A DNA stretch of 64,000 bases from an uncultured Alphaproteobacteria bacterium (GCA_963789275.1 CAWBKF010000014.1:15240-79239), one strand, 5' to 3'. Positions 22,616 through 62,189 are shown, counted from the stretch's first letter. Notes: a model not told the origin generated them from the sequence alone. Translations and numbers: made by a program.

Positions 22616-23887
22616 ATGCGCATCGAGATCATCTGCACCGGCGACGAAGTCCTCACCGGCAAGACCGTCAATACGAATTTCAGCCATATGAGCCAGAAGC
22701 TCGAGGATGTCGGGCTTGCCGTGCGCTGGGGAACCATCGTCGGCGACGACCGCGAGGCGCTGCTGGGCGCCTTCCAGCTGGCGGCGGAGCGGGCCGAGGC
22801 GGTGGTGGTGAATGGCGGCCTCGGCCCCACCGTCGACGATCTCTCGCAGGAGGTCGCCGCCCGCGCCGCCGGCGTCGATCTCGTGCTCGACGAGGCCTGG
22901 CTGGCGCGGATGGAGGAGTTCTTCCGCCGCCGCAGCCGCGTGATGCCGCCCAACAACCGCAAGCAGGCGATGCTGCCGGCGACGGCGGAGCGGCTCGACA
23001 ATCCCGTCGGCACCGCCTGCGGCTTCGCGCTCGACATCGGCAAGGCACGGTTCTTCTTCACGCCGGGCGTGCCGCGCGAGATGCGGCGCATGGTCGAGGA
23101 CCAGGTGGTGCCGCGGCTGCTCGCCCGCAGCGGCCAGCAGACGGTGATCCATCTCAAGCGATTTCATTCCTATGGCCTCGGCGAATCGCATGTCGACACG
23201 CTGCTCGCCGGCATCGAGGCTTTAGCGCCGGGCGGTGGCGTCAAGCTCGGCTTCCGCGCCCATTACCCGCAGCTCGAGACCAAGCTCGCCGTGCGCGGCG
23301 CGAGCCGCGAGGACGTGGCGCTGAAGCTCGAGCCGGTGACGGCCGAGCTGCGCCGGCGGCTCGGCAACTTCATCATTGCCGAGGACGACCAGACGCTCGA
23401 AGGCGTCGTGCTCGCAGCGCTCAGCGCGCGCGGCTGGCCGCTGGCGCTGGTCGAGACATTCACCGGCGGCCAGATCGCGACGCGGCTCGCGGCGCTGCCC
23501 GGCGCCGAGCAGGTACTGCGCCGGGCGGTGGTGTCGCGCGATCTGGCGCAGATTGCTGCCGCGGTGGGCCATGCCGGCCCGTGGTCCGGCGCCCCCGGCG
23601 ACGGCACGCTCGCCGTGGCGGTGGCGCAGGCGGCGCGGCGCGGCGCCGATGCGGCGATCGGCCTTGCCGTGCTGGTCGAGGTCGATGAGGGCGAAGACCG
23701 GATCGATGTCGGCGGCACCATCACCATCGGCATCGCCACCGCCGAGGAGAGTGCCAGCCGGCGCGCGCGGCTGCTGGGCGGGCGCGAGTGGCTTCGCCTC
23801 GGCGCCGTGGAGATGGCGCTCGACTGCCTGCGCCGGCGGCTCCAGGGCCTGCCGTTGAACGAGCGGACCGATTTCGAGAAGGTCTGA
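22616..23887 (+). CDS. cinA: CinA-family competence/damage-inducible protein (MoCF-binding plus nicotinamide-nucleotide amidase domains)
   Basis: MRIEIICTGDEVLTGKTVNTNFSHMSQKL...VVVNGGLGPTVDDLS...NPVGTACGF. 423 aa. Confidence 0.85.
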   Translation: MRIEIICTGDEVLTGKTVNTNFSHMSQKLEDVGLAVRWGTIVGDDREALLGAFQLAAERAEAVVVNGGLGPTVDDLSQEVAARAAGVDLVLDEAWLARMEEFFRRRSRVMPPNNRKQAMLPATAERLDNPVGTACGFALDIGKARFFFTPGVPREMRRMVEDQVVPRLLARSGQQTVIHLKRFHSYGLGESHVDTLLAGIEALAPGGGVKLGFRAHYPQLETKLAVRGASREDVALKLEPVTAELRRRLGNFIIAEDDQTLEGVVLAALSARGWPLALVETFTGGQIATRLAALPGAEQVLRRAVVSRDLAQIAAAVGHAGPWSGAPGDGTLAVAVAQAARRGADAAIGLAVLVEVDEGEDRIDVGGTITIGIATAEESASRRARLLGGREWLRLGAVEMALDCLRRRLQGLPLNERTDFEKV

Positions 23888-23922: not shown

Positions 23923-26900
23923 TCAGGCCAGGGCGGCGGTCTGCGTCGTCGTCAGCGCCGAGATCTGGAAAAAGGTCAGGCTGTTGACCTGGGTGGCGGT
24001 GAACGCCCCGAGCTGGGTGGTGGTGAGCGCTGCGAGCTGGGCCGGGAGGAATCCCGGGAGCTGCGTCGCGGCGATGGCCCCGATTTCCGTCGCGGTCAGC
24101 CCCGCGAGCTGACCCGGCGCGAGCTCGCCGATCCCCGTCGCGGTGAAGCCGCCGAGCTGCGTCGTGCTGAGCGCGCCGAGCTGCGTCGCGGTCAGGCCGG
24201 CGACCTGCGTCGGATTGAAAGCGCTGATTTGGGTCGCCGTCACCGCCGCAAGCTGCGTCGTGTTGAGCCCGCCGACCTGCACCGGCGTCAGCGCTTCGCT
24301 CTCGGTCGTCGTCAGCGAAGAGACCTGCTGCAACGTCAAGCTGATGACCTGGTTGAAGGTAAGCGCGCCGAGCTGCGTCGTGGTGAGCGACGCGAGCTGG
24401 CTCGAGACCAAGCCCGTGAGCTGCGTCGGAGCGATGATACCGACCTCCGTCACGGTCAGGCCACCGAGCTGCGTCGCCGTGAGACCGCCGAACTGCGTCT
24501 GCGGTGAGGCCCGTGAGCTGGGCCGGGCTCAGGGCGCCGATTTGCGTCGCGGTGAGCCTGCCAGTCTGCGTCGCGCTCAGCGCGCCGATCTCGGTCGCCG
24601 TCAGGCCGGTGATTTGCGTCGTCGGGTCGAGAGCGCCGATCTCGGCTCGCGGTGAACCCGCCGATTTGCGTCGCGGAGAGGACGCCAAGCTGCGTCGCGC
24701 TCAAAGCCTCGAGCTGCGTGGTCGAGAGCGCGCCGAGCTGAGGCGCGCTGAGGCCGCCGGCCTGCGTCGTGCTGAGGGCGCTGATCGCGGTGGTGGCGAG
24801 GCCGCCGATTTGCGTCGTCGACAGGGCGCCGAGTTGCGCCGGTGTGAGCCCCGCGGCCTGCGCCGTGGTGAGGACGCTGAGCTCGGTGGTGCTGAACCCG
24901 CCGATTTGCGTCGTTGACAGGGCACCGAGTTGCGTTGCCGTGAGCGCGCCGGCCTCGGTCGCGCCGAGGGCGCCGATCTCGGTCGCGGTCAGGCCACCGA
25001 CCTGCGTCACGGAGAGCGCGCCGATCTCGGTCGCGGTGAGCGCGCCGGCCTGGGTCGCGGTCAGCGCGCCGAGCTGCGTCGCCGTCAGGCCTTTGACCTG
25101 CGTCGTGGTCAGCCCGCCGAGCTGGGTCGCGGTTAGCGCGCCGAGCTGGGTCGAGCTCAGCGAGCCAAGCTGCGCCGCCGTCAGGCCGGGGGATTGCGTC
25201 GTCGGGTCCAACGCGCCGATCTCGGTCGCCGTGAGGCCGCCGATCTCGGTCGTGCTGAGGACGCCGAGCTGGGTCGCGCTGAGCGCGCCGGCCTCGGTCG
25301 CGGTGAGCGCGCCGAGCTGCGTCGCCGTCAGGCCCTGGACCTGCGCCGTGCTCAGAGCGCCGATCTCGGTCGCGGAGAAACCGCCGAGCTGGGTCGCCGG
25401 ATCGAGCGCGCCGAGCTGCGTCGCGGTGAGCGCGCCGAGCTGCGTCGCCGTCAGGCCGCCGATCTCGGTCGCCGTCAAGCCGCCGATCTCGCCCGTGCTG
25501 AGGGCGCCGATTTGTGTCGCCGTGAGCGCACCGGCTTGCGTCGCGGTGAGCGCGCCGATCTCGGTCGCGGTCAGGCCGCCAACCTGCGTCGCGCTGAGGG
25601 CACCGATCTCAGTTGCCGTCAGGGCGCCGGCTTGGGTTGCGCCGAGCTCGCCGATCTCCGTCGCGGTCAGGCCCTCGACCTGCGTCACGGTCAGGCCGCC
25701 AAGCTGGGTCGCGGTCAGCGCGCCGAGCTGCGTTGCGGTCAGCGCGCCCAGCTGCGCCGCGGTCAGACCAGGGCGATTGCGTCGTCGGATCGAACGCGCC
25801 GAGCTCGGTCGTGGTGAGCCCGCCGATCGCCGTCGTGCTGAGCGCGCCGAGCTCGGTCGCGGTGAGCGCGACAGCCTGGGTCGCGGTCAGCGCGCCAAGC
25901 TGCGTCGCCGTCAGGCCTGTGACCTGCGCCGTGCCCAGGGCGCCGATTTGCGTCGCGGAGAGACCGCCGAGCTGCGTCGACGCGCTGAGCGTGCCGAGCT
26001 GCGTCGCGGTGAGCGCGCCGAGCTGCGTCGCCGTCAGGCCGGCGATCTCGGTCGTATCGAGACCGCCGACCTCCGTTGTGGTGAGCGCGCCGATTTGCGT
26101 CGCCGTGAGCGCGCCGGCCTGTGTCGTCGAGAGGGCGCCGATATCGGCCGCCGTCAGGCCGTCGACTTGCGTCGCGGTGAGCGCGCCGATCTGCGTCGCG
26201 GTCAGGACGCCGACCTGCGTCACGCTGAGGCCGCCCAGCTGTGCCGCGGTGAGGCCGTTGACCTGGGTTGTGGTGAGTCCGCCCAGCTGCGTCAGGCCGA
26301 AGCCGCCGACCTGTGTGACCGTAAGCCCGCCGATTTGCGCCGCCGTAAGGGCGCCGGCCTGCGTCGTGACAAGGGCGCCGACCTGGGTTGCGCTGAACCC
26401 GCCGAGCTGCGTCGCGGTCAGAGCGCCGATTTGAGCGGCGGTGAGCGCGCCGGCCTGCGTCGTGGTGAAAGCACCGAGTTCCGTCGCGGTCACGCCCTTG
26501 ACCTGTGCCACGGTGAATGCGCCGATCTGGGTCGCCGTAACGCCGGCAAGCTGCGTCGTGGTGAGGGCGCCGATCTGCGTCGCGATCAGGCCGCCGACCT
26601 GCGCCGCGGTGAGGCCGCCAATCTCGGTCGCGCTGAGCCCGGCCGCCTGCGTCGTCGTCAGCAAGCCGATCTGCGCCGCGGTGAGCGCGCCAGCCTGCGT
26701 CGCGGAGAATCCGCCGAGATCCGTCGCGGTCAGGCCTTCGACCTGGACCGTGCCGAGGGCACCGATCTGCGTCGCGGTCAGCGCGTCGGTCTGCGTCGCC
26801 GTCAAGCTGCCGAATTGCGTCGTGGAGAGGCTGTCGACCTGCGCCGCGGTGAGGCCGCTGATTTCAGTCGTGGTGAGCGCGCCGAGCTGCGTTACGGCAA

Positions 26901-29151
26901 GCGCACCGATTTGCGCCGCGGTGAGGCCACCGGCCTGGGTCGCGGTGAGGCCGCCAACCTCCGTCGTCGTGAGGGCGCCGATCTGCGTCGTGCTGAGCGC
27001 GCCGATCGCCGCCGCCGTGAGGCCGCCGGCCTGCGTCGTGCTGAGCGCCCCAACCTCCGTCGTGGTCAGGCCCTTGACCTGCACCGCGCTCACGGCACCG
27101 ATTTGCGTCGCGGTGAGCCCGTCGAGCTGGGTTTGCGGGTCGAGCGCGCCGAGCTGCGTCGCGGTCAGGCCGCCGACCTGCGTGGTCGTCAGACCGGCGA
27201 TCTCGGTCACGGAGAGCCCGGCGAGCTGCGTCGTCGTCAGCGCGCCGATTTGTGGCGCCGTGAGCGCGCCGGCTTGCGTCGTGCTGAACGCGCCGATTTC
27301 GGAGACGGTCAGGCCCTTGATCTGTGTCGCGGTGAGCGCGCCGATTTGCGATCGCCGTGAGCGCGCCGGCTTGCGTCGTGGTGAGCGCGCCGATCGCGGT
27401 CGCGGTCAAGCCCTTGACCTGCGTCGCGGTCAGCCCCGTGATCTCAGTCGCGGTGAGCGCACCGGCCTGCGTCGCGGTGAACGCGCCAAGCTGCGTCGCG
27501 GTGAGGCCGGTGGATTGCGTCGTCGGATCGAGCGCCCCGATTTCGGTGGCGGTGAAGCCGCCGATCTGCGTCGCCGTGAGTGCGCCGATTTGCGTTGCCG
27601 TCAGGGCAGCGGCCTGCGTGGTGCTGAGCCCGCCAAGCTCCGTCGCGGTCAAGCCCTTGACCTGCGCGGCGCTCAGGGCACCGATTTGCGTCGCCGACAA
27701 CTCCGCCAAGCTGCGTCTGCGGGTCGAGCGCGCCGAGCTGCGTCGCGGTCAGGCCACCGACCTGCGTCGTCGTCAGACCGGCTATCTCGGTCGCGGTGAG
27801 CCCGGTGACCTGCGTCGTGGTCAGCGCACCGATTTGCGTCACCGTAAGCGCGGCGGCCTGCGTCGTGCTGAGCGCGCCTAGCTCCGTCGCGGTCAAGCCC
27901 TTGATCTGCGTCGTGCTGAACGCACCGGTTTGGGTCGCCGTCAGCGCGCCGGCCTGCGTCGTGCTGAGCGCGCCAATAGCGGTGGCGGTCAAGCCCTTGA
28001 CCTGGGTCACGGTCAGCCCGGTGATCTCGGTCGCGGTCAGCGCGCCGATCTGCGTCGTGGTGAAGGCGCCGAGCTGCGTCGCGGTCAGGCCGGGGGATTG
28101 CGTCGTCGGGTCGAGCGCACCGATCGCGGTGGTGGTGAGCCCGCCGACCTGCGTGGTGGTCAGCGCAGCGATTTGCGTCGCCGTCAGGGCGCTGACCTGC
28201 GTGGTGCTGAGCCCGCCAAGCTCGGTCGCGGTCAGGCCCTTGACCTGCGCGGCGCTCAGGGCACCGATTTGCGTCGCCGACAACCCGCCAAGCTGCGTCT
28301 GCGGGTCGAGCGCCCCGAGCTGGGTCGCGGTGAAGCCGCCGACCTGTGTCGTCGTCAGGCCGGTTATCTCGGTCGCGGTGAGCCCGGTGACCTGCGTCGT
28401 GGTCAGCGCGCCGATTTGCGTCGCCGTAAGCGCGCCGGCCTGCGTCGCGCTGAGCGCGCCGAGCTCCGTCGCGGTCAAGCCCTTGATCTGCGTCGTGCTG
28501 AGCGCACCGGTTTGGGTCGCGGTCAGGGCGCCGGCCTGCGTCGTGCTGAGTGCGCCAATAACAGTTCGCGGTCAAGCCCTTGACCTGGGTGACGGTAAGC
28601 CCGGTGATCTCGGTCGCGGTCAGCGCGCCGATCTGCGTCGTGGTGAAAGAGCCGATCTGCGTCGCGGTAAGGCCGGTGGACTGCGTCGTCGGATCGAGAG
28701 CGCTGATCTCGGTCGCCGTGAGCCCACCGATCTGCGTCGTGGTGAGCGCGCCGATATCGGTCGCCGTCAGGGCGGCCACCTGCGTCGCGCTGAAGGCACC
28801 GATCTCGGTCGCGGTCAAGCCCTTGACCTGGCTCGCGCCCAAAGCACCCAGCTGGGTCGCGTCGAGGCCCGCCACTTGCGCCGCCGTGAGGGCACCGAGC
28901 TGCGCCGCGCTCAGGCTGACGAGCTGCCAGGTGGCCAGCGTATCGAAGGCCGTGGCGGTCAGCGCGGCAATGGCCGTGATACTGATCTGAGGAAGCTGAG
29001 TGGTATTGAGTGCGTCCACTTCGGTGGACGTGGCGACGGCAGCTTGCGCGGCGTCGATCGCCTGTACGTCAGTGACAGCGAAGCGCTGTACCGCGGTCGC
29101 CGACAGGCCGGCGAATTGGGCCGGCGTTACATAGGCGATGAGCGAGGTCAT
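23923..29151 (-). pseudogene. giant Thr/Ser-rich octapeptide-repeat protein, paralogue 1, interrupted by at least 6 small indels
   Basis: GGAG lies 8 nt before ATG 29151. The N-terminus MTSLIAYVTPAQFAGLSATAVQRFAVTDVQ... is 71/120 identical (my count) to the intact neighbour. The repeat frame hops through track ORFs 27673..29151, 27444..28478, 26864..27709, 25609..27210, 24456..25688, 23222..24688 (N-terminal part) and 23923..24453. Switch points are near 28562, 27702, 27351, 25770, 24646 and 24505. Confidence 0.75.
27100..28900 (-). repeat. roughly 600-bp (about 25 octads) higher-order repeat, about 3 diverged copies inside paralogue 1
   Basis: Blocks starting at about 27127, 27712 and 28305 (caagctgcgtctgcgggtcgagcgc...) align with each other by eye, with scattered substitutions. 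They are much more diverged than the array in paralogue 2. Confidence 0.6.
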
Positions 29152-29312
29152 TGCATATGCTCCGCGCTCGGAGGGTCAGGCGGCGGCGTTTGCCGCCGCG
29201 AGGCCCGGCTGCGGAAATCCGTTGCCGCCGACACTGCGCCTGCCTCTCGAACCGGCACGCGGGACCGTTGCTCGATCTCGCGCACCCCGCGACCAGGGTC
29301 GCGGCCGACCGA

Positions 29313-32300
29313 TCACACCAGGGAGTCGAGCTGCGCCGTCGACAGGCTCCCGACCTGGGTTGAGTTGAAGCCACCGATCTGGGTGACGGTGAACGTCGCT
29401 AGCTGCGTTGTGGTCAGGCTCTGGATCTGCGCCGTGCCAAGTTCGGTGATCTCGCTCGCCGTCAGGCCCTTGATCTGCGCCGTGGTGAGCGCCTGGACCT
29501 GCGCCGTCGTCAGCGCGTTGAGCGCCGCCGAGCTGAGACTGCTGATCTCGGCCGTGGTGAGGCCGGTGATCTGCGTCGCCGTGCTCAGCGACTGGATCTG
29601 CGCGCTGGTCAGGCCGCCGATGGCGGTCGTCGTCAGCGCCCCGATATCCTGCGAGGTCAGCCCGGTGAGCTGCGTCGCCGCGCTGAACGCGTTGACCTGG
29701 GTCGAGGTCAGGCCCTTGACCTGCGTCGTGCTCAGCGCCCCGATCTGCGCCGAGGTCAGCGCCGCCGTGTTCAGGCTCGGCAGCTGCGCCGCCGTCAGCC
29801 CGGTGACCTGCGTCGCCGTGCTCAGCGCCTGGATCTGCGCCGAGGTCAGGCCGCCGATCTGCGTCGCGTTGAGCGCGCCGATCTGCTGCGAGGTCAGCCC
29901 GTCCACCTGCGTCGCCGTGGCGAGCGCGGTGATCTCCGAGGCGGTGAAGCCGGCGATCTGCGCCGTCGTCAGCGCCCCGATATCCTGCGAGGTCAGCCCG
30001 GTCAGCTGCGTCGCCGTGCTCAGCGCGCCGATCTCGGTCGTGCTCAGGCCCTTGACCTGCGCCGTGCTCAGCGCCCCGATCTGCGCCGAGGTCAGCGCCG
30101 CCGTGTTCAGGCTCGGCAGCTGCGTCGCCGTCAGCCCGGTGAGCTGCGTCGCCGTGCTCAGCGCCTGGATCTGCGCGCTGCTCAGGCCGCCGATCTGCGT
30201 CGTCGTCAGCGCCCCGATATCCTGCGAGGTCAGCCCGGTCAGCTGCGTCGCCGCGCTGAACGCGTTGATCTGGGTCGAGGTCAGACCCTTGACCTGCGTC
30301 GTGCTCAGCGCCCCGATCTGCGCCGAGGTCAGCGCCGCCGTGTTCAGGCTCGGCAGCTGCGCCGCCGTCAGCCCGGTGACCTGCGTCGCCGTGCTCAGCG
30401 CCTGGATCTGCGCCGAGGTCAGGCCGCCGATCTGCGTCGCGTTGAGCGCGCCGATCTGCTGCGAGGTCAGCCCGTCCACCTGCGTCGCCGTGGCGAGCGC
30501 GGTGATCTCCGAGGCGGTGAAGCCGGCGATCTGCGCCGTCGTCAGCGCCCCGATATCCTGCGAGGTCAGCCCGGTCAGCTGCGTCGCCGTGCTCAGCGCG
30601 CCGATCTCGGTCGTGCTCAGGCCCTTGACCTGCGCCGTGCTCAGCGCCCCGATCTGCGCCGAGGTCAGCGCCGCCGTGTTCAGGCTCGGCAGCTGCGTCG
30701 CCGTCAGCCCGGTGAGCTGCGTCGCCGTGCTCAGCGCCTGGATCTGCGCGCTGCTCAGGCCGCCGATCTGCGTCGTCGTCAGCGCCCCGATATCCTGCGA
30801 GGTCAGCCCGGTCAGCTGCGTCGCCGCGCTGAACGCGTTGATCTGGGTCGAGGTCAGGCCCTTGACCTGCGTCGTGCTCAGCGCCCCGATCTGCGCCGAG
30901 GTCAGCGCCGCCGTGTTCAGGCTCGGCAGCTGCGCCGCCGTCAGCCCGGTGACCTGCGTCGCCGTGCTCAGCGCCTGGATCTGCGCCGAGGTCAGGCCGC
31001 CGATCTGCGTCGCGTTGAGCGCGCCGATCTGCTGCGAGGTCAACCCGTCCACCTGCGTCGCCGTGGCGAGCGCGGTGATCTCCGAGGCGGTGAAGCCGGC
31101 GATCTGCGCCGTCGTCAGCGCCCCGATATCCTGCGAGGTCAGCCCGGTCAGCTGCGTCGCCGTGCTCAGCGCGCCGATCTCGGTCGTGCTCAGGCCCTTG
31201 ACCTGCGCCGTGCTCAGCGCCCCGATCTGCGCCGAGGTCAGCGCCGCCGTGTTCAGGCTCGGCAGCTGCGTCGCCGTCAGCCCGGTGAGCTGCGTCGCCG
31301 TGCTCAGCGCCTGGATCTGCGCGCTGCTCAGGCCGCCGATCTGCGTCGTCGTCAGCGCCCCGATATCCTGCGAGGTCAGCCCGGTCAGCTGCGTCGCCGC
31401 GCTGAACGCGTTGATCTGGGTCGAGGTCAGACCCTTGACCTGCGTCGTGCTCAGCGCCCCGATCTGCGCCGAGGTCAGCGCCGCCGTGTTCAGGCTCGGC
31501 AGCTGCGCCGCCGTCAGCCCGGTGACCTGCGTCGCCGTGCTCAGCGCCTGGATCTGCGCCGAGGTCAGGCCGCCGATCTGCGTCGCGTTGAGCGCGCCGA
31601 TCTGCTGCGAGGTCAACCCGTCCACCTGCGTCGCCGTGGCGAGCGCGGTGATCTCCGAGGCGGTGAAGCCGGCGATCTGCGCCGTCGTCAGCGCCCCGAT
31701 ATCCTGCGAGGTCAGCCCGGTCAGCTGCGTCGCCGTGCTCAGCGCGCCGATCTCGGTCGTGCTCAGGCCCTTGACCTGCGCCGTGCTCAGCGCCCCGATC
31801 TGCGCCGAGGTCAGCGCCGCCGTGTTCAGGCTCGGCAGCTGCGTCGCCGTCAGCCCGGTCAGCTGCGTCGCCGTGCTCAGCGCCTGGATCTGCGCGCTGC
31901 TCAGGCCGCCGATCTGCGTCGTCGTCAGCGCCCCGATATCCTGCGAGGTCAGCCCGGTCAGCTGCGTCGCCGCGCTGAACGCGTTGATCTGGGTCGAGGT
32001 CAGACCCTTGACCTGCGTCGTGCTCAGCGCCCCGATCTGCGCCGAGGTCAGCGCCGCCGTGTTCAGGCTCGGCAGCTGCGCCGCCGTCAGCCCGGTGACC
32101 TGCGTCGCCGTGCTCAGCGCCTGGATCTGCGCCGAGGTCAGGCCGCCGATCTGCGTCGCGTTGAGCGCGCCGATCTGCTGCGAGGTCAACCCGTCCACCT
32201 GCGTCGCCGTGGCGAGCGCGGTGATCTCCGAGGCGGTGAAGCCGGCGATCTGCGCCGTCGTCAGCGCCCCGATATCCTGCGAGGTCAGCCCGGTCAGCTG

Positions 32301-34628
32301 CGTCGCCGTGCTCAGCGCGCCGATCTCGGTCGTGCTCAGGCCCTTGACCTGCGCCGTGCTCAGCGCCCCGATCTGCGCCGAGGTCAGCGCCGCCGTGTTC
32401 AGGCTCGGCAGCTGCGTCGCCGTCAGCCCGGTCAGCTGCGTCGCCGTGCTCAGCGCCTGGATCTGCGCGCTGCTCAGGCCGCCGATCTGCGTCGTCGTCA
32501 GCGCCCCGATATCCTGCGAGGTCAGCCCGGTCAGCTGCGTCGCCGCGCTGAACGCGTTGATCTGGGTCGAGGTCAGACCCTTGACCTGCGTCGTGCTCAG
32601 CGCCCCGATCTGCGCCGAGGTCAGCGCCGCCGTGTTCAGGCTCGGCAGCTGCGCCGCCGTCAGCCCGGTGACCTGCGTCGCCGTGCTCAGCGCCTGGATC
32701 TGCGCCGAGGTCAGGCCGCCGATCTGCGTCGCGTTGAGCGCGCCGATCTGCTGCGAGGTCAACCCGTCCACCTGCGTCGCCGTGGCGAGCGCGGTGATCT
32801 CCGAGGCGGTGAAGCCGGCGATCTGCGCCGTCGTCAGCGCCCCGATATCCTGCGAGGTCAGCCCGGTCAGCTGCGTCGCCGTGCTCAGCGCGCCGATCTC
32901 GGTCGTGCTCAGGCCCTTGACCTGCGCCGTGCTCAGCGCCCCGATCTGCGCCGAGGTCAGCGCCGCCGTGTTCAGGCTCGGCAGCTGCGTCGCCGTCAGC
33001 CCGGTGAGCTGCGTCGCCGTGCTCAGCGCCTGGATCTGCGCGCTGCTCAGGCCGCCGATCTGCGTCGTCGTCAGCGCCCCGATATCCTGCGAGGTCAGCC
33101 CGGTCAGCTGCGTCGCCGCGCTGAACGCGTTGATCTGGGTCGAGGTCAGCCCCTTGACCTGCGTCGTGCTCAGCGCCCCGATCTGCGCCGAGGTCAGCGC
33201 CGCCGTGTTCAGGCTCGGCAGCTGCGCCGCCGTCAGCCCGGTGACCTGCGTCGCCGTGCTCAGCGCCTGGATCTGCGCCGAGGTCAGGCCGCCGATCTGC
33301 GTCGCGTTGAGCGCGCCGATCTGCTGCGAGGTCAGCCCGTCCACCTGCGTCGCCGTGGCGAGCGCGGTGATCTCCGAGGCGGTGAAGCCGGCGATCTGCG
33401 CCGTCGTCAGCGCCCCGATATCCTGCGAGGTCAGCCCGGTCAGCTGCGTCGCCGTGCTCAGCGCGCCGATCTCGGTCGTGCTCAGGCCCTTGACCTGCGC
33501 CGTGCTCAGCGCCCCGATCTGCGCCGAGGTCAGCGCCGCCGTGTTCAGGCTCGGCAGCTGCGTCGCCGTCAGCCCGGTGAGCTGCGTCGCCGTGCTCAGC
33601 GCCTGGATCTGCGCGCTGCTCAGGCCGCCGATCTGCGTCGTCGTCAGCGCCCCGATATCCTGCGAGGTCAGCCCGGTCAGCTGCGTCGCCGCGCTGAACG
33701 CGTTGATCTGGGTCGAGGTCAGACCCTTGACCTGCGTCGTGCTCAGCGCCCCGATCTGCGCCGAGGTCAGCGCCGCCGTGTTCAGGCTCGGCAGCTGCGC
33801 CGCCGTCAGCCCGGTGACCTGCGTCGCCGTGCTCAGCGCCTGGATCTGCGCCGAGGTCAGGCCGCCGATCTGCGTCGCGTTGAGCGCGCCGATCTGCTGC
33901 GAGGTCAGCCCGTCCACCTGCGTCGCCGTGGCGAGCGCGGTGATCTCCGAGGCGGTGAAGCCGGCGATCTGCGCCGTCGTCAGCGCCCCGATATCCTGCG
34001 AGGTCAGCCCGGTCAGCTGCGTCGCCGTGCTCAGCGCGCCGATCTCGGTCGTGCTCAGGCCCTTGACCTGCGCCGTGCTCAGCGCCCCGATCTGCGCCGA
34101 GGTCAGCGCCGCCGTGTTCAGGCTCGGCAGCTGCGTCGCCGTCAGCCCGGTGAGCTGCGTCGCCGTGCTCAGCGCCTGGATCTCCGCGCTGCTCAGGCCG
34201 CCGATCGCGGTCGTCGTCAACGCCCCGATCTGCTGCGAGGTCAGCCCGGTGACCTGAGTCGTCGGGCTGAGCTCGCCAATCTCGGTCGAGGTCAGGCCTT
34301 TTGCCGCCGTCACGCTGAAGGCGCCGATCTGCGCCGAGCTGAGCCCACCGATCTGCGACGGGGTCAGGACGCTAAGCTGCGCGGCATTCAAAGTGAAGAG
34401 CTGCCAGGTGGCGAGCGAATCGATGGCGGTAGCGGTCAGCGCAGCGACATCGGTGGTGTTGAGCGCCTGGATCTGCGACGTGCTCAGCGCGTCGACTTCC
34501 GTAGCCGTGGCAGCTGCCGCCTGCGCGGCGCTGATCGACTGAATATCGGTGACGGAGAGATTCTGGATGGCTGTCGTCGACAGCGCCGCGAACTGACTCG
34601 GCGACAGCAGGGTGATAAGCGAGGTCAT
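29313..34628 (-). CDS. giant Thr/Ser-rich octapeptide-repeat protein, paralogue 2 (1771 aa, intact)
   Basis: Uninterrupted ORF with GGAG 8 nt before the ATG. From residue ~7 to the C-terminus it is built of [LF]-[ST]-x-[ST]-[QE]-[ILV]-x-x units (LTSAQIGA, LSTTEIGA, LTTTQIGG...). No signal peptide, no Cys, no non-repeat domain. Third codon positions are GC-rich on this strand. Confidence 0.85.
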   Translation of the reverse strand: MTSLITLLSPSQFAALSTTAIQNLSVTDIQSISAAQAAAATATEVDALSTSQIQALNTTDVAALTATAIDSLATWQLFTLNAAQLSVLTPSQIGGLSSAQIGAFSVTAAKGLTSTEIGELSPTTQVTGLTSQQIGALTTTAIGGLSSAEIQALSTATQLTGLTATQLPSLNTAALTSAQIGALSTAQVKGLSTTEIGALSTATQLTGLTSQDIGALTTAQIAGFTASEITALATATQVDGLTSQQIGALNATQIGGLTSAQIQALSTATQVTGLTAAQLPSLNTAALTSAQIGALSTTQVKGLTSTQINAFSAATQLTGLTSQDIGALTTTQIGGLSSAQIQALSTATQLTGLTATQLPSLNTAALTSAQIGALSTAQVKGLSTTEIGALSTATQLTGLTSQDIGALTTAQIAGFTASEITALATATQVDGLTSQQIGALNATQIGGLTSAQIQALSTATQVTGLTAAQLPSLNTAALTSAQIGALSTTQVKGLTSTQINAFSAATQLTGLTSQDIGALTTTQIGGLSSAQIQALSTATQLTGLTATQLPSLNTAALTSAQIGALSTAQVKGLSTTEIGALSTATQLTGLTSQDIGALTTAQIAGFTASEITALATATQVDGLTSQQIGALNATQIGGLTSAQIQALSTATQVTGLTAAQLPSLNTAALTSAQIGALSTTQVKGLTSTQINAFSAATQLTGLTSQDIGALTTTQIGGLSSAQIQALSTATQLTGLTATQLPSLNTAALTSAQIGALSTAQVKGLSTTEIGALSTATQLTGLTSQDIGALTTAQIAGFTASEITALATATQVDGLTSQQIGALNATQIGGLTSAQIQALSTATQVTGLTAAQLPSLNTAALTSAQIGALSTTQVKGLTSTQINAFSAATQLTGLTSQDIGALTTTQIGGLSSAQIQALSTATQLTGLTATQLPSLNTAALTSAQIGALSTAQVKGLSTTEIGALSTATQLTGLTSQDIGALTTAQIAGFTASEITALATATQVDGLTSQQIGALNATQIGGLTSAQIQALSTATQVTGLTAAQLPSLNTAALTSAQIGALSTTQVKGLTSTQINAFSAATQLTGLTSQDIGALTTTQIGGLSSAQIQALSTATQLTGLTATQLPSLNTAALTSAQIGALSTAQVKGLSTTEIGALSTATQLTGLTSQDIGALTTAQIAGFTASEITALATATQVDGLTSQQIGALNATQIGGLTSAQIQALSTATQVTGLTAAQLPSLNTAALTSAQIGALSTTQVKGLTSTQINAFSAATQLTGLTSQDIGALTTTQIGGLSSAQIQALSTATQLTGLTATQLPSLNTAALTSAQIGALSTAQVKGLSTTEIGALSTATQLTGLTSQDIGALTTAQIAGFTASEITALATATQVDGLTSQQIGALNATQIGGLTSAQIQALSTATQVTGLTAAQLPSLNTAALTSAQIGALSTTQVKGLTSTQINAFSAATQLTGLTSQDIGALTTTQIGGLSSAQIQALSTATQLTGLTATQLPSLNTAALTSAQIGALSTAQVKGLSTTEIGALSTATQLTGLTSQDIGALTTAQIAGFTASEITALATATQVDGLTSQQIGALNATQIGGLTSAQIQALSTATQVTGLTAAQLPSLNTAALTSAQIGALSTTQVKGLTSTQVNAFSAATQLTGLTSQDIGALTTTAIGGLTSAQIQSLSTATQITGLTTAEISSLSSAALNALTTAQVQALTTAQIKGLTASEITELGTAQIQSLTTTQLATFTVTQIGGFNSTQVGSLSTAQLDSLV
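29580..34250 (-). repeat. 573-bp (191-aa) tandem higher-order repeat, about 8 near-identical copies
   Basis: The marker gctgaacgcgttgatctgg recurs at 30255, 30828, 31401, 31974, 32547, 33120 and 33693, an exact 573-bp period, plus a diverged copy at about 29682. Only a few single-base differences separate the units. Confidence 0.9.
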
Positions 34629-34663
34629 CTAATCTTCTCCGCGCTCCAGATTTTCACCGATCA

Positions 34664-34703
34664 CAGAATCTCGTTAGCTATTCCAGAGTCTCGTTAGCTA
34701 TTC
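34664..34703. promoter_or_regulatory. 20-bp tandem direct repeat upstream of repeat-protein gene 2
   Basis: cagaatctcgttagctattc / cagagtctcgttagctattc, one mismatch. It lies 36-75 nt upstream of ATG 34628 in an AT-richer divergent intergenic region. The function is inferred only. Confidence 0.35.
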
Positions 34704-35063
34704 CACGCAGGGTGCGGAGATTAGGCTGTCGTCGATGAAAAAACTCCTAATTCACGCGACAAACAAACGTACTGCGCCCGCACCCGCCGCGGACCTTGCC
34801 GTGGCCGCGCGTCGCAATGGTTTCGTTATGAAAGTCAGCAGGTTACCGACGATCTCTCGAGCGCCAACGCACCGCTCGTCGCCCCTCGCCGCGCGCGTCA
34901 TCACCTTCACACGATCGCGCAAGCGAAGAAAAAACGTCGGAAAACATCGTTACTATTCTTGCGCATCGCGACTTTCTGATCGCCGCGGCATCGTGGTTAC
35001 TAATCATTAAGGCCGACGTGCCAAGCTGGACAAAGTAGAGAGCACTTCCGTGGTGGAGCGAGC

Positions 35064-35171
35064 ATGCCGATACCGGCCGCCTCAGCGCCGAACATTGAGA
35101 ACGTGATTTCCGACGTCCGCTTGCTGTCGGCGCAGGACGCCCCGACCCCGGCGCCTCCGCGAGTCGCATGA
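35064..35171 (+). CDS. possible 35-codon leader ORF coupled to the GT41 gene
   Basis: GGTGGAG lies 5 nt before ATG 35064 (MPIPAASAPNIENVISDVRLLSAQDAPTPAPPRVA). Its TGA overlaps ATG 35168 (ATGA). It could instead be the true GT41 N-terminus separated by an indel. Confidence 0.3.
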   Translation: MPIPAASAPNIENVISDVRLLSAQDAPTPAPPRVA

Positions 35172-37255
35172 CGCCGCTGGGAGCCAGCGCCGCCGAAGTG
35201 ATAGAGCTGCTGCCCGACCGGGCTGCGGGGCGGACGGAAACCATCTTGCCGGCGGTCTTCACTGCGGCCGTGGCGAAAGCGTCAGCGCAGGCGCTCGAGC
35301 CGGGCGACTTGATCACCGCGACCCAGGCGCTCGCCAGCGCCAAACAACCGGCGCTCGTCCAGCAACTCTACAAAAGCTGGCTCGCTCACAACCCGGACCA
35401 TCCGTCGCGACATGTGATCTTGTTCAACTATGGCGTCACGCTCTCCGATGCCGGCGATCTCGCCGCTGCCCGCGACACCTTCCTCGAGGCGATCGCACTT
35501 CAAAAGGATTTCCTGCCGCCCTGCATCAATGTGGGAGTGGTGCTGGAACGGATGGGGGCGACCGACCAGGCGATTGTCCAGTGGTATCACGTGGCGAACG
35601 CCGTCGTTCCCGTCGACGGCAACGCCATCGGCTACAAGACGGTGGCGTTGAAGCAGATCGCGCGAGTGCTCGAGACCGCACGCTACGAGGCGCAAGCCGA
35701 GGATGCGCTGCGGCTGAGCCTGGAGATAAATCCTCATCAGCGGGAGCCGATCCAGCACTGGATCTTCCTGCGCCAGGGCCAGTGCAAGTGGCCGGTGCTG
35801 ACGCCCTGGGCGAACGTGACCCGCCCCCTGCTGATGGAGAGCTTCTATCCCTTGTCGCTGGCCTATTACGCCGATGATCCGCTGTTCCAGCTGGGCACCG
35901 CCAATCAGTACAGCAAGCTCGACGTCGGCAGGCCCGCCATCGCCACTGTCGGCAGCTGGCCGGCACCCCTCCCCACGCAGCAGCGGCGGCTGCGCGTCGG
36001 CTATCTCTCGTCGGATCTGCGCGCCCATGCCGTGGGCTTCCTGACCAGCGAAATGTTCGAGCTCCACGACCGCAAGCAGGTCGAGGTTTTCGCCTATTAC
36101 TGCGGCATCCGGGCCGAGGATGAGACCAAGGCAAGGATCCGACAGGCGGTCGATCACTGGGTCGACATCAACGATCTCAGCGATCACCAGGCCGCGCGCC
36201 GGATCGTCGAGGACGGGATCGACATCCTGGTGGACCTCAACGGCTATTCGAAGGATGCGCGCTCGAAGGTCTTCGCGCTGCGTCCGGCGCCGATCATCGT
36301 CAACTGGCTGGGCTATCCCGGCACGATGGGCAGCCCCTATCACCACTACATCATCGCCGACGACTACATCATCCCGCGCGGCCACGAAATCTACTATTCG
36401 GAAAAGGTGCTGCGGCTGCCCTGCTACCAGCCGAACGACCGCAAGCGCGTCATCGCCGCCGCGCGGCCAACGCGCCGCGAAGCCGGGCTGCCGGAAGAGG
36501 GCACGGTCTATTGCTCCTTCAACGCTACGCAGAAAATCACGCCTGCGGTCTTCGCCCACTGGATGACGATCCTGTCGCGCGTCCCGGACAGCGTGCTGTG
36601 GTTCCTCGCCGGGGCCGCGGACACGGAGGAGCGGCTGCGGCAACTGGCGACGCCGCTCGGCATCGCGCCGGAGAGGCTGATCTTTGCCGCGCGGGCGCCA
36701 AATCCCGAGCACATGGCGCGCTTCGCGCTGGCCGACGTGCTGCTGGATACTTGGCCCTACGGCTCGCACACCACGGCCTCCGACGCGCTGTGGCTGGGCG
36801 TGCCCGTGCTGACGGTCTCCGGCCGCGGTTTCGCGTCGCGCGTCTGCGGCAGCCTCCTCCACGCCGCCGGGCTGGGCGAGCTGGTCTGCAACAGCTTCGA
36901 TGAGTATGTCGAGCGGGCGGTGACGCTCGGCCGCGACAAAGCCGCGCTAAGGAACTACAAGGACCGGCTGATCGCGAACCGCGACGGTTGCACGCTCTTC
37001 GACACGAACTTGCTGGTGCGCAAGCTCGAGGCGCTCTTCGCCCGGATGTGGGAGGATTACTGCCGCGGCGAATTGCCGGTGCCGACGCTGACCAATCTCG
37101 AGCTCTACCACGAGATCGGCACCCAGGAAGACATCGAGTCCTCGGGCGCGCTGTCGTCCGTCGACTATCACGATCGTTATCGCCGGGCCCTCGCCTACCG
37201 CGACAGCCTTTCGCGGCTGCCGGCCGATGGCCGGCTGTGGCCGGGCGGCGGTTGA
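35168..37255 (+). CDS. TPR-containing GT41-family glycosyltransferase (OGT/SPINDLY/HMW1C-like)
   Basis: 695 aa. The N-terminal third is TPR-like (YKSWLAHNPDHPSRHVILFNYGVTLSDAGDLAAARDTFLEAIAL...). The C-terminal part matches the COG3914/GT41 pattern as I recall it: RVGYLSSDLRAHAVGFL, VNWLGYPGTMGSPYHHYIIAD, LPCYQPND, VYCSFNATQKITP, DTWPYGSHTTASDALWLGVPVLT. Confidence 0.8.
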   Translation: MTPLGASAAEVIELLPDRAAGRTETILPAVFTAAVAKASAQALEPGDLITATQALASAKQPALVQQLYKSWLAHNPDHPSRHVILFNYGVTLSDAGDLAAARDTFLEAIALQKDFLPPCINVGVVLERMGATDQAIVQWYHVANAVVPVDGNAIGYKTVALKQIARVLETARYEAQAEDALRLSLEINPHQREPIQHWIFLRQGQCKWPVLTPWANVTRPLLMESFYPLSLAYYADDPLFQLGTANQYSKLDVGRPAIATVGSWPAPLPTQQRRLRVGYLSSDLRAHAVGFLTSEMFELHDRKQVEVFAYYCGIRAEDETKARIRQAVDHWVDINDLSDHQAARRIVEDGIDILVDLNGYSKDARSKVFALRPAPIIVNWLGYPGTMGSPYHHYIIADDYIIPRGHEIYYSEKVLRLPCYQPNDRKRVIAAARPTRREAGLPEEGTVYCSFNATQKITPAVFAHWMTILSRVPDSVLWFLAGAADTEERLRQLATPLGIAPERLIFAARAPNPEHMARFALADVLLDTWPYGSHTTASDALWLGVPVLTVSGRGFASRVCGSLLHAAGLGELVCNSFDEYVERAVTLGRDKAALRNYKDRLIANRDGCTLFDTNLLVRKLEALFARMWEDYCRGELPVPTLTNLELYHEIGTQEDIESSGALSSVDYHDRYRRALAYRDSLSRLPADGRLWPGGG

Positions 37256-37275
37256 GCGCGCCGCAGTCGTGATCG

Positions 37276-38016
37276 CTAGCGCTTGACGACCGTACGGCAG
37301 GAGTAGTCGACGCGGTTGAGCTTCACCGCGATGCCGTGCTTGGCAAAATAGGCATCCACCGCTTCTCTCTGGCCCTTGTAGTGACCGTAATCGTCGATGA
37401 CGAGCACGCCGCCGCGCGAGAGCGGCGGCCAGAATACCTCCATCGAGATCTGCGCGCTCGGAAACCAGTCGGTATCGAGCCGCACGATGGCAAAAGCTGG
37501 CGCGGTTGGCGCACGCGCCGTCTCCTCTACCATGCCCTTGACCAATTTCACCGGGCCGCGGTAACCGGTCGATGCCATGTTGGCAGCCACTTCCTCGACG
37601 CCGACCCGCCCCCACTCCGTGGTCCCATCGGCCTTCACATTGGCCTGCCAGTCATCGATCGCGCGGCGGCCCCAGAGATCGACCTCGTTTTCGGAAGGCA
37701 TCGGATGGCCTTCGAAGGTATCGTAGAGCCAGAGCCCCCGAGAGGTGTCGCCGAGCATCTGCAGCGTCTTGGCGACAAGCATCATCGAGCCGCCGCGCCA
37801 CACGCCGCACTCGACGATGTCGCCGGGCACACCCGCTCTGACGATGTATTCGACCGACTTGTAGAGATCGAACATCCTCTCCACGGAGGTCATCGTGAAG
37901 GAGCGCACCGCGTTGAAGATCGGCGCGAAGTCGCGGTCCATATCGGCATAGCCGGCGACCCGATCCTGCCGTTGCATCAGGTCCTGATAGTCGATCATGA
38001 AGGGCGTTCCATCCAC
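37276..38016 (-). CDS. TylF/MycF-family SAM-dependent O-methyltransferase
   Basis: 246 aa. GDIVECGVWRGGS ... LYDTFEG ... VRLDTDWFPS ... GGVLVIDDYGHYKG is the macrocin-O-methyltransferase family signature. Confidence 0.8.
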   Translation of the reverse strand: MDGTPFMIDYQDLMQRQDRVAGYADMDRDFAPIFNAVRSFTMTSVERMFDLYKSVEYIVRAGVPGDIVECGVWRGGSMMLVAKTLQMLGDTSRGLWLYDTFEGHPMPSENEVDLWGRRAIDDWQANVKADGTTEWGRVGVEEVAANMASTGYRGPVKLVKGMVEETARAPTAPAFAIVRLDTDWFPSAQISMEVFWPPLSRGGVLVIDDYGHYKGQREAVDAYFAKHGIAVKLNRVDYSCRTVVKR

Positions 38017-38070
38017 AGAACTTGATTGTCAACGGCTTGGGATAGCAGTGCTACGGACCCCCTCCCGTTG

Positions 38071-38982
38071 TCACGCCGCGGCCTGGGGGGCCTGCATCGA
38101 CTCCTGGATGGCTTGAATCTCCGCCTGCATGACGGCCGCCATCTGTAGCGCCTGCGCCTTCAAGCGCTCGTAGCGGGCATCAGGCGCGCCGGCGCCGATC
38201 CTCTGTTCGTATTGCGCGTAATCGCTGCTGCGCAGCACGCCGTTGACATAGAGCGAGCGACCCTCGACCAGCGGGTAGTGGCGCAGCAGCATCTCTTTGC
38301 GCCAAGGCGGATCGAGAAATTCCGGCGAGCGGATGATGTCAAAGGCGCAACGGCGGCGGACGATCTGTCCGAGGTCGTAGAAATCGGCCCAGAAGGCCAG
38401 CTCGCGGAGCTCCTGCGTGCCGGGACGGCGGCTGGTGTCGATATGGACATCGGCGAATGAGATGCGGTCGATTAGGCGCACGATGTCGTCCAGCCAGTGA
38501 TCGATGAACCAGTAGGGGAAATAGGGCGGATAGATGAAGCCCATCTTCTTGGCGAGACCATGCGTGATCCCGTTGATCTGCGGGAAGGACGCATTGGCGA
38601 GGTGGTTGTAGACGACGCCGATGTTGTCGGGGAAACGCGCCGCCGCCTCGAGGATCTTGGCGTCGAACCCCGGCGTGATGTGCGGCCCGTAATCCACCAT
38701 GGCGAGATAGACGTCCGCCGGCACCTGGAGCGCGCGATTGTATTTCCCGCCGAGCGAATCCTCGCGTTGCGCGACGACCGGCCGCAAGCGGCGGTCGACG
38801 GGCAAGTGCGGCAGAGCGTCGATCGTCTTCTGGTCGTCGTGATCGACCGAGATCATGAAGATCGTGGTCGGCAGCACGATATTGGGCAGCGTCTCTTGGA
38901 CCGTGCGGAGGAGCAATTCGGGGCGCCCGCGCGTGCACAGGTTGATGGTCAGCGTCAGGTCGCTCACGTGTTCACCCCTCAC
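38071..38982 (-). CDS. hypothetical protein, possibly GT-A-like glycosyltransferase
   Basis: 303 aa. The N-terminus (TLTINLCTRGRPELLLRTVQETL...IFMISVDHDDQKT) looks like a GT2-type Rossmann start with an acidic DxD-like motif. I recognise no firm family. Confidence 0.45.
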   Translation of the reverse strand: MRGEHVSDLTLTINLCTRGRPELLLRTVQETLPNIVLPTTIFMISVDHDDQKTIDALPHLPVDRRLRPVVAQREDSLGGKYNRALQVPADVYLAMVDYGPHITPGFDAKILEAAARFPDNIGVVYNHLANASFPQINGITHGLAKKMGFIYPPYFPYWFIDHWLDDIVRLIDRISFADVHIDTSRRPGTQELRELAFWADFYDLGQIVRRRCAFDIIRSPEFLDPPWRKEMLLRHYPLVEGRSLYVNGVLRSSDYAQYEQRIGAGAPDARYERLKAQALQMAAVMQAEIQAIQESMQAPQAAA

Positions 38983-39166: not shown

Positions 39167-39242
39167 TGGTGGAGCAGAGGGGGATCGAACCCCTGACCTC
39201 GACATTGCGAACGTCGCGCTCTCCCAACTGAGCTACTGCCCC
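39167..39242 (-). tRNA. tRNA-Ala (anticodon CGC)
   Basis: The reverse complement GGGGCAGTAGCTCAGTTGGGAGAGCGCGACGTTCGCAATGTCGAGGTCAGGGGTTCGATCCCCCTCTGCTCCACCA folds as a cloverleaf. It has the G3:U70 identity pair, anticodon loop TTCGCAA and an encoded CCA. Confidence 0.9.
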
Positions 39243-61957: not shown

Positions 61958-62032
<75 letters not shown>

Positions 62033-62189
62033 GCGTAAAGTTTCTGCTGACGCTGGACTATTCGAAGGTCGGGACGCGGTTGGGCGCAACCGTGGCAGGT
62101 GTGCACCCACGAAGCTTTGGCTCGACAGGCCATAGGCCTTTCACTAGTTTTGAGGTCCCCTCATTAGCTGTTTCCGATCGGAAGTCGGT

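Follow-up and report, generated by a model that had tools for sequence, protein, structure and literature searches.

An OGT-type GT41 glycosyltransferase gene and an ALTTAQ-repeat gene form a conserved pair across Alphaproteobacteria: a candidate dedicated protein O-glycosylation system

RESULTS

A TPR-GT41 gene lies divergent from a giant ALTTAQ-repeat gene

A stretch of 64,000 nucleotides (nt) from an uncultured Alphaproteobacteria bacterium (GCA_963789275.1 CAWBKF010000014.1:15240-79239; hereafter the window, with positions counted from its first letter) encodes a 695-amino-acid (aa) glycosyltransferase of family GT41 with N-terminal tetratricopeptide repeats (TPRs), and divergent from it lies a gene for a giant protein built of ALTTAQ repeats. 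Surveys made from either gene strongly identify the two as a near-obligate gene pair across Alphaproteobacteria, and we propose that the enzyme could be the dedicated glycosyltransferase of the repeat protein. The original prediction, made from the window's sequence, had placed here a glycosylation module of this GT41 protein, a TylF-family methyltransferase and a GT-A-like protein, by which the Ser/Thr-rich repeat proteins would receive a methylated glycan. The features concerned are as follows.

29313-34628, minus strand: ALTTAQ-repeat gene 2, intact, 1771 aa, Pfam PF20080 (ALTTAQ_rpt), candidate acceptor
34629-35167: divergent intergenic region between gene 2 and the GT41 gene, 539 nt
35168-37255, plus strand: TPR and GT41 (OGT/XcOGT-type) putative protein glycosyltransferase, 695 aa, PF13844
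37276-38016, minus strand: TylF-family S-adenosylmethionine (SAM)-dependent (sugar) O-methyltransferase, 246 aa, PF05711
38071-38982, minus strand: glycosyltransferase-like protein, 303 aa, with a GT-A fold by AlphaFold2 and Foldseek; family unnamed

The GT41, TylF and 303-aa genes were all three confirmed to be real. For the GT41 gene the start had been set at 35064, about 100 nt too early, as its first ATG is at 35168 and the orthologues of 693-696 aa align over the full length. The TylF and 303-aa genes had been rightly identified but wrongly described as following the GT41 gene, since both lie on the minus strand: TylF converges on GT41 across a gap of 20 nt, and the GT-A gene is located upstream of TylF at a distance of 54 nt. 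No sigma-70-like site was found in the 34629-35167 intergenic region between gene 2 and the GT41 gene.

The GT41 protein belongs by sequence to the OGT branch

The 695-aa protein matched Pfam Glyco_transf_41 (PF13844) at 297.8 bits (E = 1.5e-88; cut-off 25), and the earlier reading of a TPR-containing GT41 protein divergent from gene 2 was borne out. Matches to TPR_12, TPR_2, TPR_8 and TPR_14 were found in its N-terminus, each under its own cut-off, and TPR families are present in most of the orthologues. The closest solved structure is XcOGT (PDB 2jlb; E = 2e-83, 284 bits), followed by human OGT (E = 4e-80, 273 bits) and SPINDLY (E = 2e-55); the metazoan intervening domain is absent, as it is in XcOGT. 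By alignment, H287 corresponds to H498 of human OGT and H218 of XcOGT, and K456 to K842 and K388, respectively. Among 40 GT41 orthologues, H287, K456, N452 and H534-T535-T536, the latter within a conserved GSHTT, are invariant, and so are N87 and N121 of the TPR region; aligned with human OGT, these two coincide with TPR position-6 residues and appear to be positions of the OGT 'asparagine ladder'. Sequence comparison thus places the enzyme in the OGT/SPY branch, as an XcOGT-type member, and because the catalytic His and Lys, the HTT and the ladder Asn residues are invariant, it looks both active and peptide-binding.

Of the initial assignment as OGT/HMW1C-type, the OGT part held and the HMW1C part did not. 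The NCBIfam equivalog of N-glycosyltransferases (NGTs), NF049992, scored 37.2 bits against a cut-off of 1000, and NGT chains in the PDB gave just 34-38 bits (36-38 bits for 8j30 and 3q3e), so membership of the HMW1C/NGT branch was rejected. An HMW1C-like enzyme acting on N-x-S/T sequons of the repeat protein, to which this weak similarity and the 11 sequons in gene 2 might point, is hardly credible: the NGT score is far under its cut-off and the XcOGT and human OGT scores are several times higher, and the sequons are few and their sites, flagged earlier, are not conserved, the C-terminal FNSTQ of gene 2 being NAFT or DAFT in orthologues.

GT41 and ALTTAQ genes are paired in both directions of survey

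A forward survey, with each GTDB species represented by a single genome, gave the 80 nearest GT41 loci, at 50-76% identity (one at 76%, the others at 50-57%). The carriers, including Azospirillum, Telmatospirillum, Magnetospirillum, Roseomonas, Methylosinus, Methylocystis, Pseudolabrys, Phenylobacterium, Caulobacter and others, range over Rhodospirillales, Acetobacteraceae, Hyphomicrobiales, Caulobacterales and Magnetococcus, together with a few metagenome-assembled genomes labelled as other phyla. By tBLASTn and motif scan, an ALTTAQ open reading frame (ORF) was found to adjoin the GT41 gene in nearly all 80 loci, with lengths from several hundred to >3,300 aa and many running past the locus end; ORF clustering showed that the repeat gene and the GT41 gene alone are conserved throughout the set.

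A reverse survey, independent of GT41, was performed in metagenomes by scanning for a DNA pattern of the ALTTAQ C-terminal motif L[ST]TTQG[NH]AFT. Among its 33 matches, 29 were true ALTTAQ C-termini and four arose by chance, and a GT41 orthologue was adjacent in all 28 of the 28 C-termini that had sufficient flank (the 29th had 405 nt of flank).

Pooling yielded 108 loci with a GT41 orthologue, in 93 of which an ALTTAQ gene stands beside it. In 84 of the 108 it is directly upstream on the same strand, with a median predicted gap of 101 nt (82 of the 84 within 300 nt); in five, including the window and its closest relatives, it is divergent; and in four it is downstream on the same strand. No ALTTAQ ORF passed the filter in the remaining 15, several of which merely fall short of flank, while two with full flanks (L076 and L077) are truly without one.

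Gene 2 encodes a predicted solenoid rod of eight-residue units

Gene 2 matched PF20080 with E = 1.2e-54, its two ends scoring 182 and 122 bits where the cut-off is 26.4, and has a GC content at third codon positions (GC3) of 0.97. Its product consists of 20% Thr, 17% Ala, 14% Leu, 12% Gln and 10% Ser and is devoid of Cys, Tyr and His; the 30.5% of Ser plus Thr agrees with the ~30% first estimated. The octad consensus is L-[T/S]-[S/T/A]-[A/T]-Q-I-x-[A/G]. An AlphaFold2 model covering 33879-34628 on the minus strand (predicted local distance difference test score, pLDDT, 89.6) displayed a solenoid rod with one 5-residue helix per 8-residue octad, in which the position-2 Thr/Ser precedes the helix and the position-5 Gln/Glu lies three residues inside it, as in a capping box. 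Octad positions 3-4 would, from this model, more likely be the exposed hydroxyls. Foldseek retrieved no close solved fold for the model, the best being mesothelin with a template modelling score of 0.32.

Across loci, the ALTTAQ proteins vary from 241 to >3,300 aa with unchanged termini. The shortest, a natural 241-aa protein encoded at L167:186-911 (minus strand), has its N- and C-termini in common with the 1771-aa protein of the window, is divergent from a 73%-identical GT41 gene, and would serve experiments well as a minimal substrate.

TylF and the GT-A protein occupy a variable slot and have phage-borne relatives

The TylF protein matched Pfam TylF (PF05711) with 139.4 bits against a cut-off of 23 (E = 1.7e-40). 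The closest solved structures to it are the O-methyltransferase 4cdz/5i10, MycF and NovP, and its VRLDTDWFPS aligns with LRLDGDLYES of 5i10/4cdz, which is the LD-x-D metal-binding segment. The 303-aa protein had no match in Pfam or NCBIfam and fell into no named GT family, GT2 or similar, and in PHROG gave a weak glycosyltransferase match (E = 7.7e-4). We found 248 homologues of it; D47, D49, D50, D97 and D161 are invariant in the family. Its AlphaFold2 model (pLDDT 95) was matched by Foldseek to PcManGT, TarS, TarP and ppGalNAc-T2 (probability 1.0, E = 6e-8 to 1e-5), so that modelling assigns a GT-A fold to the whole protein, beyond the N-terminus for which a GT-A-like character had been claimed.

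These two genes lie in a slot between the GT41 gene and yggT-folD. Each of the five members of the window's clade has in this slot a GT-A-type enzyme and one or more SAM methyltransferases, of differing ancestry. In the window and in L001 the slot contains the GT-A protein and TylF, the L001 TylF orthologue being 85% identical and in the same position. In L168 it contains the GT-A protein, a SASA esterase, TylF and a methyltransferase-like protein; in L167, a GT2-like/SEC-C protein and a Methyltransf_24 protein, starting 11 nt after the GT41 gene on the same strand; and in L087, a 544-aa protein ending in Methyltransf_24, TylF, Methyltransf_11 and an FkbM-TPR fusion. The N-terminal half of the 544-aa protein, which has no Pfam match, is glycosyltransferase-like by eye only. 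Because non-orthologous genes of the same function repeatedly replace each other here, the slot content suggests a variable glycan-tailoring module. Over the 108 loci, methyltransferase genes lie within 3 kb of the GT41 gene in 23 (FkbM in 17, Methyltransf_11 in six and TylF in four), and genes of short-chain dehydrogenase/reductase-type sugar dehydratases/epimerases in 13. On the strength of the clade's slot contents and of these nearby methyltransferases, a tailored or methylated glycan is plausible.

An FkbM domain fused to TPRs and to a ~450-aa C-terminal region of unknown family was observed directly beside the GT41 gene at L031:12129-14429, at L087:1519-3879 and in five more loci. It may be a protein-directed methyltransferase. 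These fusions were also considered as degenerate GT41 carriers, and no meaningful similarity was found.

Members of the 303-aa family are carried for the most part by phages. They are present on 42 IMG/VR contigs (L125-L166) at 28-58% identity, and the list of phage contigs with the family also includes L081-L086; five IMG/VR contigs keep the GT-A>TylF order (L125, with 58% identity for each protein, L126, L130 and L165/166), six have a Methyltransf_11 gene beside the GT-A gene, and several of the phage contigs carry capsid and portal genes nearby. GenBank (cultured) phages gave no match to the 303-aa protein, so the phage link comes from metagenomic viral contigs alone.

Such a distribution would also suit a moron-like, phage-derived cassette independent of the ALTTAQ protein, which serves another target (an envelope polysaccharide or another protein) and was inserted near the tRNA-Ala by chance. 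The GC content of the GT-A and TylF genes is 62.6-63.7%, against 71-73% in the repeat gene, cinA and folD (62.6-66.1% when the GT41 gene is counted with them); they lie on the strand opposite to GT41; and TylF or the GT-A protein occurs in 2-4 of the 108 GT41 loci and is absent from at least 104. Against it, the five related genomes keep a GT-A-type enzyme and a methyltransferase in the slot despite replacement, in two of them the slot genes point the same way as GT41, with narrow gaps, and no att-type repeat or integrase was found in the block. We give this account somewhat less than an even chance, and that the GT-A and TylF pair of the window participates in tailoring an ALTTAQ glycan has about even odds. 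The module as originally conceived was thus upheld in its GT41-ALTTAQ pairing, which the neighbourhood survey showed from both sides, and not in a co-occurrence with TylF or the GT-A protein outside the clade; a possible slot for glycan tailoring is what we retain of that part.

A candidate dedicated O-glycosylation system, its difficulties and its alternatives

It is rather more probable than an even chance, in our judgement, that the locus encodes the O-glycosylation machinery of a helical-solenoid fibre protein, a dedicated system that acts in the cytoplasm and has an exchangeable cassette for tailoring the glycan. Its core would be the two genes for the ALTTAQ-repeat protein and its own cytoplasmic OGT-type GT41 enzyme. 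The short N-terminal TPR superhelix would bind the still-unfolded repeat polypeptide, and the GT-B domain would move a sugar from a nucleotide-sugar, most likely a uridine diphosphate (UDP)-linked N-acetylhexosamine or UDP-hexose, to Ser/Thr residues exposed in the octad L-[T/S]-[S/T/A]-[A/T]-Q-I-x-x. Once modified, the protein would fold up as a long rod made of 8-residue helix-turn units and exit the cell, most likely by a type I secretion system encoded outside the window. The converging GT-A and TylF genes, which have relatives on phages, would represent a tailoring cassette specific to the lineage that adds a second sugar and O-methylates the glycan.

For export we counted the absence of Cys in the ALTTAQ proteins. 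Type I secretion genes, ATP-binding cassette (ABC) plus HlyD, flank the pair in 7 of the 108 loci, and a betaproteobacterial ALTTAQ protein with an SPM domain (PF26745; L122:10001-11682) adjoins a C39-ABC/membrane fusion protein gene pair and sugar-nucleotide genes.

Several observations weigh against this proposal. In the 64-kb window no type I secretion genes were found, and its GT41 and ALTTAQ genes are divergent and so do not form an operon. The TylF and GT-A genes converge on GT41, and beyond the window their exact pair is confined to the close relatives L001 (85-86% identity) and L168 (82-86%). None of the GT-A phage contigs carries GT41 or ALTTAQ, and the acceptor of the cassette on phages must therefore differ. 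The betaproteobacterial SPM-type protein has no GT41 gene beside it, nor has an ALTTAQ protein with the conserved N-terminus and a C-terminal NF038122 metalloprotease domain (L123:7012-11689), and the pairing is hence specific to a subfamily. On the model, moreover, the Ser/Thr content of gene 2 is probably in good part structural, as helix N-caps; because the capping box accounts for positions 2 and 5, richness in Ser/Thr is not itself a sign of glycosylation.

That Ser/Thr positions can be explained structurally would equally suit an ALTTAQ protein that is not the acceptor but a partner or scaffold, for example a TPR-bound rod localising or regulating the enzyme, and conserved adjacency indicates functional coupling without its direction. 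We hold such a role improbable, since a length varying from 241 to >3,300 aa would be less natural in a stoichiometric regulator than in a fibre or substrate, and since the precedents of giant repeat proteins with an adjacent glycosyltransferase that are generally known, HMW1/HMW1C and serine-rich repeat protein/GtfAB, are all enzyme-substrate pairs.

A further difficulty for the proposed ALTTAQ-directed system arises from flagellar genes, which 24 of the 108 loci have within 10 kb of the pair and 19 within 3 kb, leaving flagellin as a possible substrate. Flagellins, FlaF, FlbT, FlgE, FlgK and FlgL are encoded among these neighbours, in at least four syntenic contexts, and the flanked pairs include those of L023, L026, L028, L030, L031, L033, L037, L040, L042, L063 and L068; this adjacency is too frequent for chance. 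The GT41 enzyme might then be a FlmG-like O-glycosyltransferase of flagellin or of proteins more broadly and the ALTTAQ gene just a co-regulated neighbour, all the more as FlmG also combines TPRs with a GT-B domain and modifies flagellins in the cytoplasm (PMC7591256). However, GT41 keeps its ALTTAQ neighbour (in at least 93 of 108 loci, with 28 of 28 from the reverse survey) far more constantly than any flagellar one, no flagellar genes were found in the window, and FlmG, of 596 aa, was described as a new class and not termed GT41 (PMC7591256). We consider a flagellin-directed role unlikely, though less so than that of a scaffold. A 657-aa protein beside Phenylobacterium flagellins, examined as a possible FlmG/GT41 relative, was unrelated and matched a beta-propeller lipoprotein.

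More broadly, and only tentatively, the pair could represent a widespread alphaproteobacterial surface-fibre system, in which an octad rod is heavily O-glycosylated by an OGT-type enzyme and its glycan is diversified by GT-A/methyltransferase cassettes exchanged with phages; phages might carry such cassettes to remodel the ALTTAQ fibre as a receptor. We regard this wider picture as possible but doubtful.

The surrounding block is probably an old resident

The genes described above belong to a block whose remaining features are as follows.

~23.9-39.2 kb: block of five genes between cinA and tRNA-Ala(cgc)
22616-23887, plus strand: cinA, left boundary
23923-29151, minus strand: ALTTAQ-repeat gene 1, with a 24-nt (8-aa) repeat and an N-terminus as in gene 2, frame-broken
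39167-39242, minus strand: tRNA-Ala(cgc), by ARAGORN and Rfam, its 3' end facing the block; a landmark only

The position of the block between cinA and the 3' end of the tRNA-Ala is as first described. No att-type copy of the tRNA-Ala 3' end longer than 14 nt was detected within 23.9-39.2 kb and no integrase was seen among the ORFs of the window, so a tRNA-integrated genomic island was rejected. Synteny with relatives is seen in the right flank, yggT-folD. The block has probably long been resident, with turnover in its accessory slot.

In gene 1, Tandem Repeats Finder reported periods of 24, 48 and 96 nt over 24440-28817, and the ALTTAQ motif density shifts through the frames 1>2>0>1>2>0>1. 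These six frame changes, near 28565, 27700, 27350, 25775, 24645 and 24480, are all +1, each by an apparent 1-nt insertion, and gene 1 is either a pseudogene or affected by consensus errors in the repeats. Split ALTTAQ ORFs were observed elsewhere as well (L038, L050, L056, L062 and L088). A plus-strand ORF of 2153 aa at 27796-34257 (GC3 0.93) was dismissed as an antisense shadow of the repeat genes; it is prone to mis-annotation as a gene.

At the far end of the window, 62033-64000 has a GC content of 51-58%, compared with a window average of ~69%, directly after tRNA-Thr(cgt) at 61958-62032. It holds only small ORFs, and here the end of the window may cut through the margin of an integrated element.

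DISCUSSION

Significance of the pairing

Bacterial homologues of OGT have been known and crystallised since 2008, with natural substrates known in few cases; the Synechococcus Ogt acts on pilin and the Yersinia HmwC on several proteins. A pair conserved in about 100 genomes names a specific candidate substrate for OGT-type bacterial enzymes, and, should the surface-fibre picture be true, this would be the first native substrate to be genetically paired with an XcOGT-like bacterial OGT. The carriers include cultivable Azospirillum, Methylosinus, Magnetospirillum and Phenylobacterium, which makes the question testable. The pairing also gives a first functional handle on PF20080, a repeat family of unusual predicted architecture, and points to glycan-tailoring genes that these loci and phages have in common. 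Our search of the full-text literature found no paper on ALTTAQ/PF20080 or on its pairing with GT41.

Comparison with known systems

For the proposed tailoring enzyme, the likeness to TylF, MycF and NovP consists in the Pfam match and in the aligned metal-binding segment. Those enzymes methylate antibiotic deoxysugars, whereas the gene here is paired with a GT-A gene and has homologues on phage genomes.

In its layout the GT41 protein most resembles two kinds of TPR enzymes. With XcOGT (XCC0866; PDB 2jlb and 2vsy) it shares a short TPR region followed by GT-B, the lack of an intervening domain, the HTT motif, and the catalytic His and Lys. We know of no established native substrate of XcOGT, while the GT41 subfamily described here, with at least 50% mutual identity, has a near-constant candidate substrate gene alongside. 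With FlmG of Caulobacter the common points would be a TPR N-domain selecting the substrate, a GT-B C-domain and cytoplasmic action before export, and the ALTTAQ-GT41 pair adjoins flagellin loci in Caulobacterales and other lineages. FlmG, which puts pseudaminic acid on flagellins, belongs to a class apart (PMC7591256), and the constant neighbour here is the ALTTAQ protein, in the window without any flagellar genes.

The Gram-positive serine-rich repeat adhesins with their GtfA/GtfB likewise combine a Ser/Thr-rich repeat protein, an initiating cytoplasmic O-glycosyltransferase and extra glycosyltransferases that vary among strains. Their glycosyltransferases belong to GT4 rather than GT41, an accessory SecA2/Y2 is lacking here, and their serine-rich regions are disordered, in contrast to the folded helical units predicted for the ALTTAQ protein.

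In HMW1/HMW1C of Haemophilus, too, a cytoplasmic GT41 gene stands beside that of a giant secreted protein which is modified at multiple sites before export, a scheme to which the present locus would correspond. HMW1C is of the NGT type with an all-alpha AAD domain, whereas the enzyme here is of the OGT/XcOGT type with TPRs; the sequons are not conserved here, there is no two-partner secretion gene, and the acceptor family, ALTTAQ, is unrelated to HMW1. Conserved adjacency is the kind of evidence that once tied HMW1C to HMW1. The logic of a dedicated cytoplasmic glycosyltransferase encoded beside its giant repeat substrate is thus established by HMW1/HMW1C and the serine-rich repeat adhesins, and that the ALTTAQ-GT41 pair follows the same logic appears strongly supported by its genomic context.

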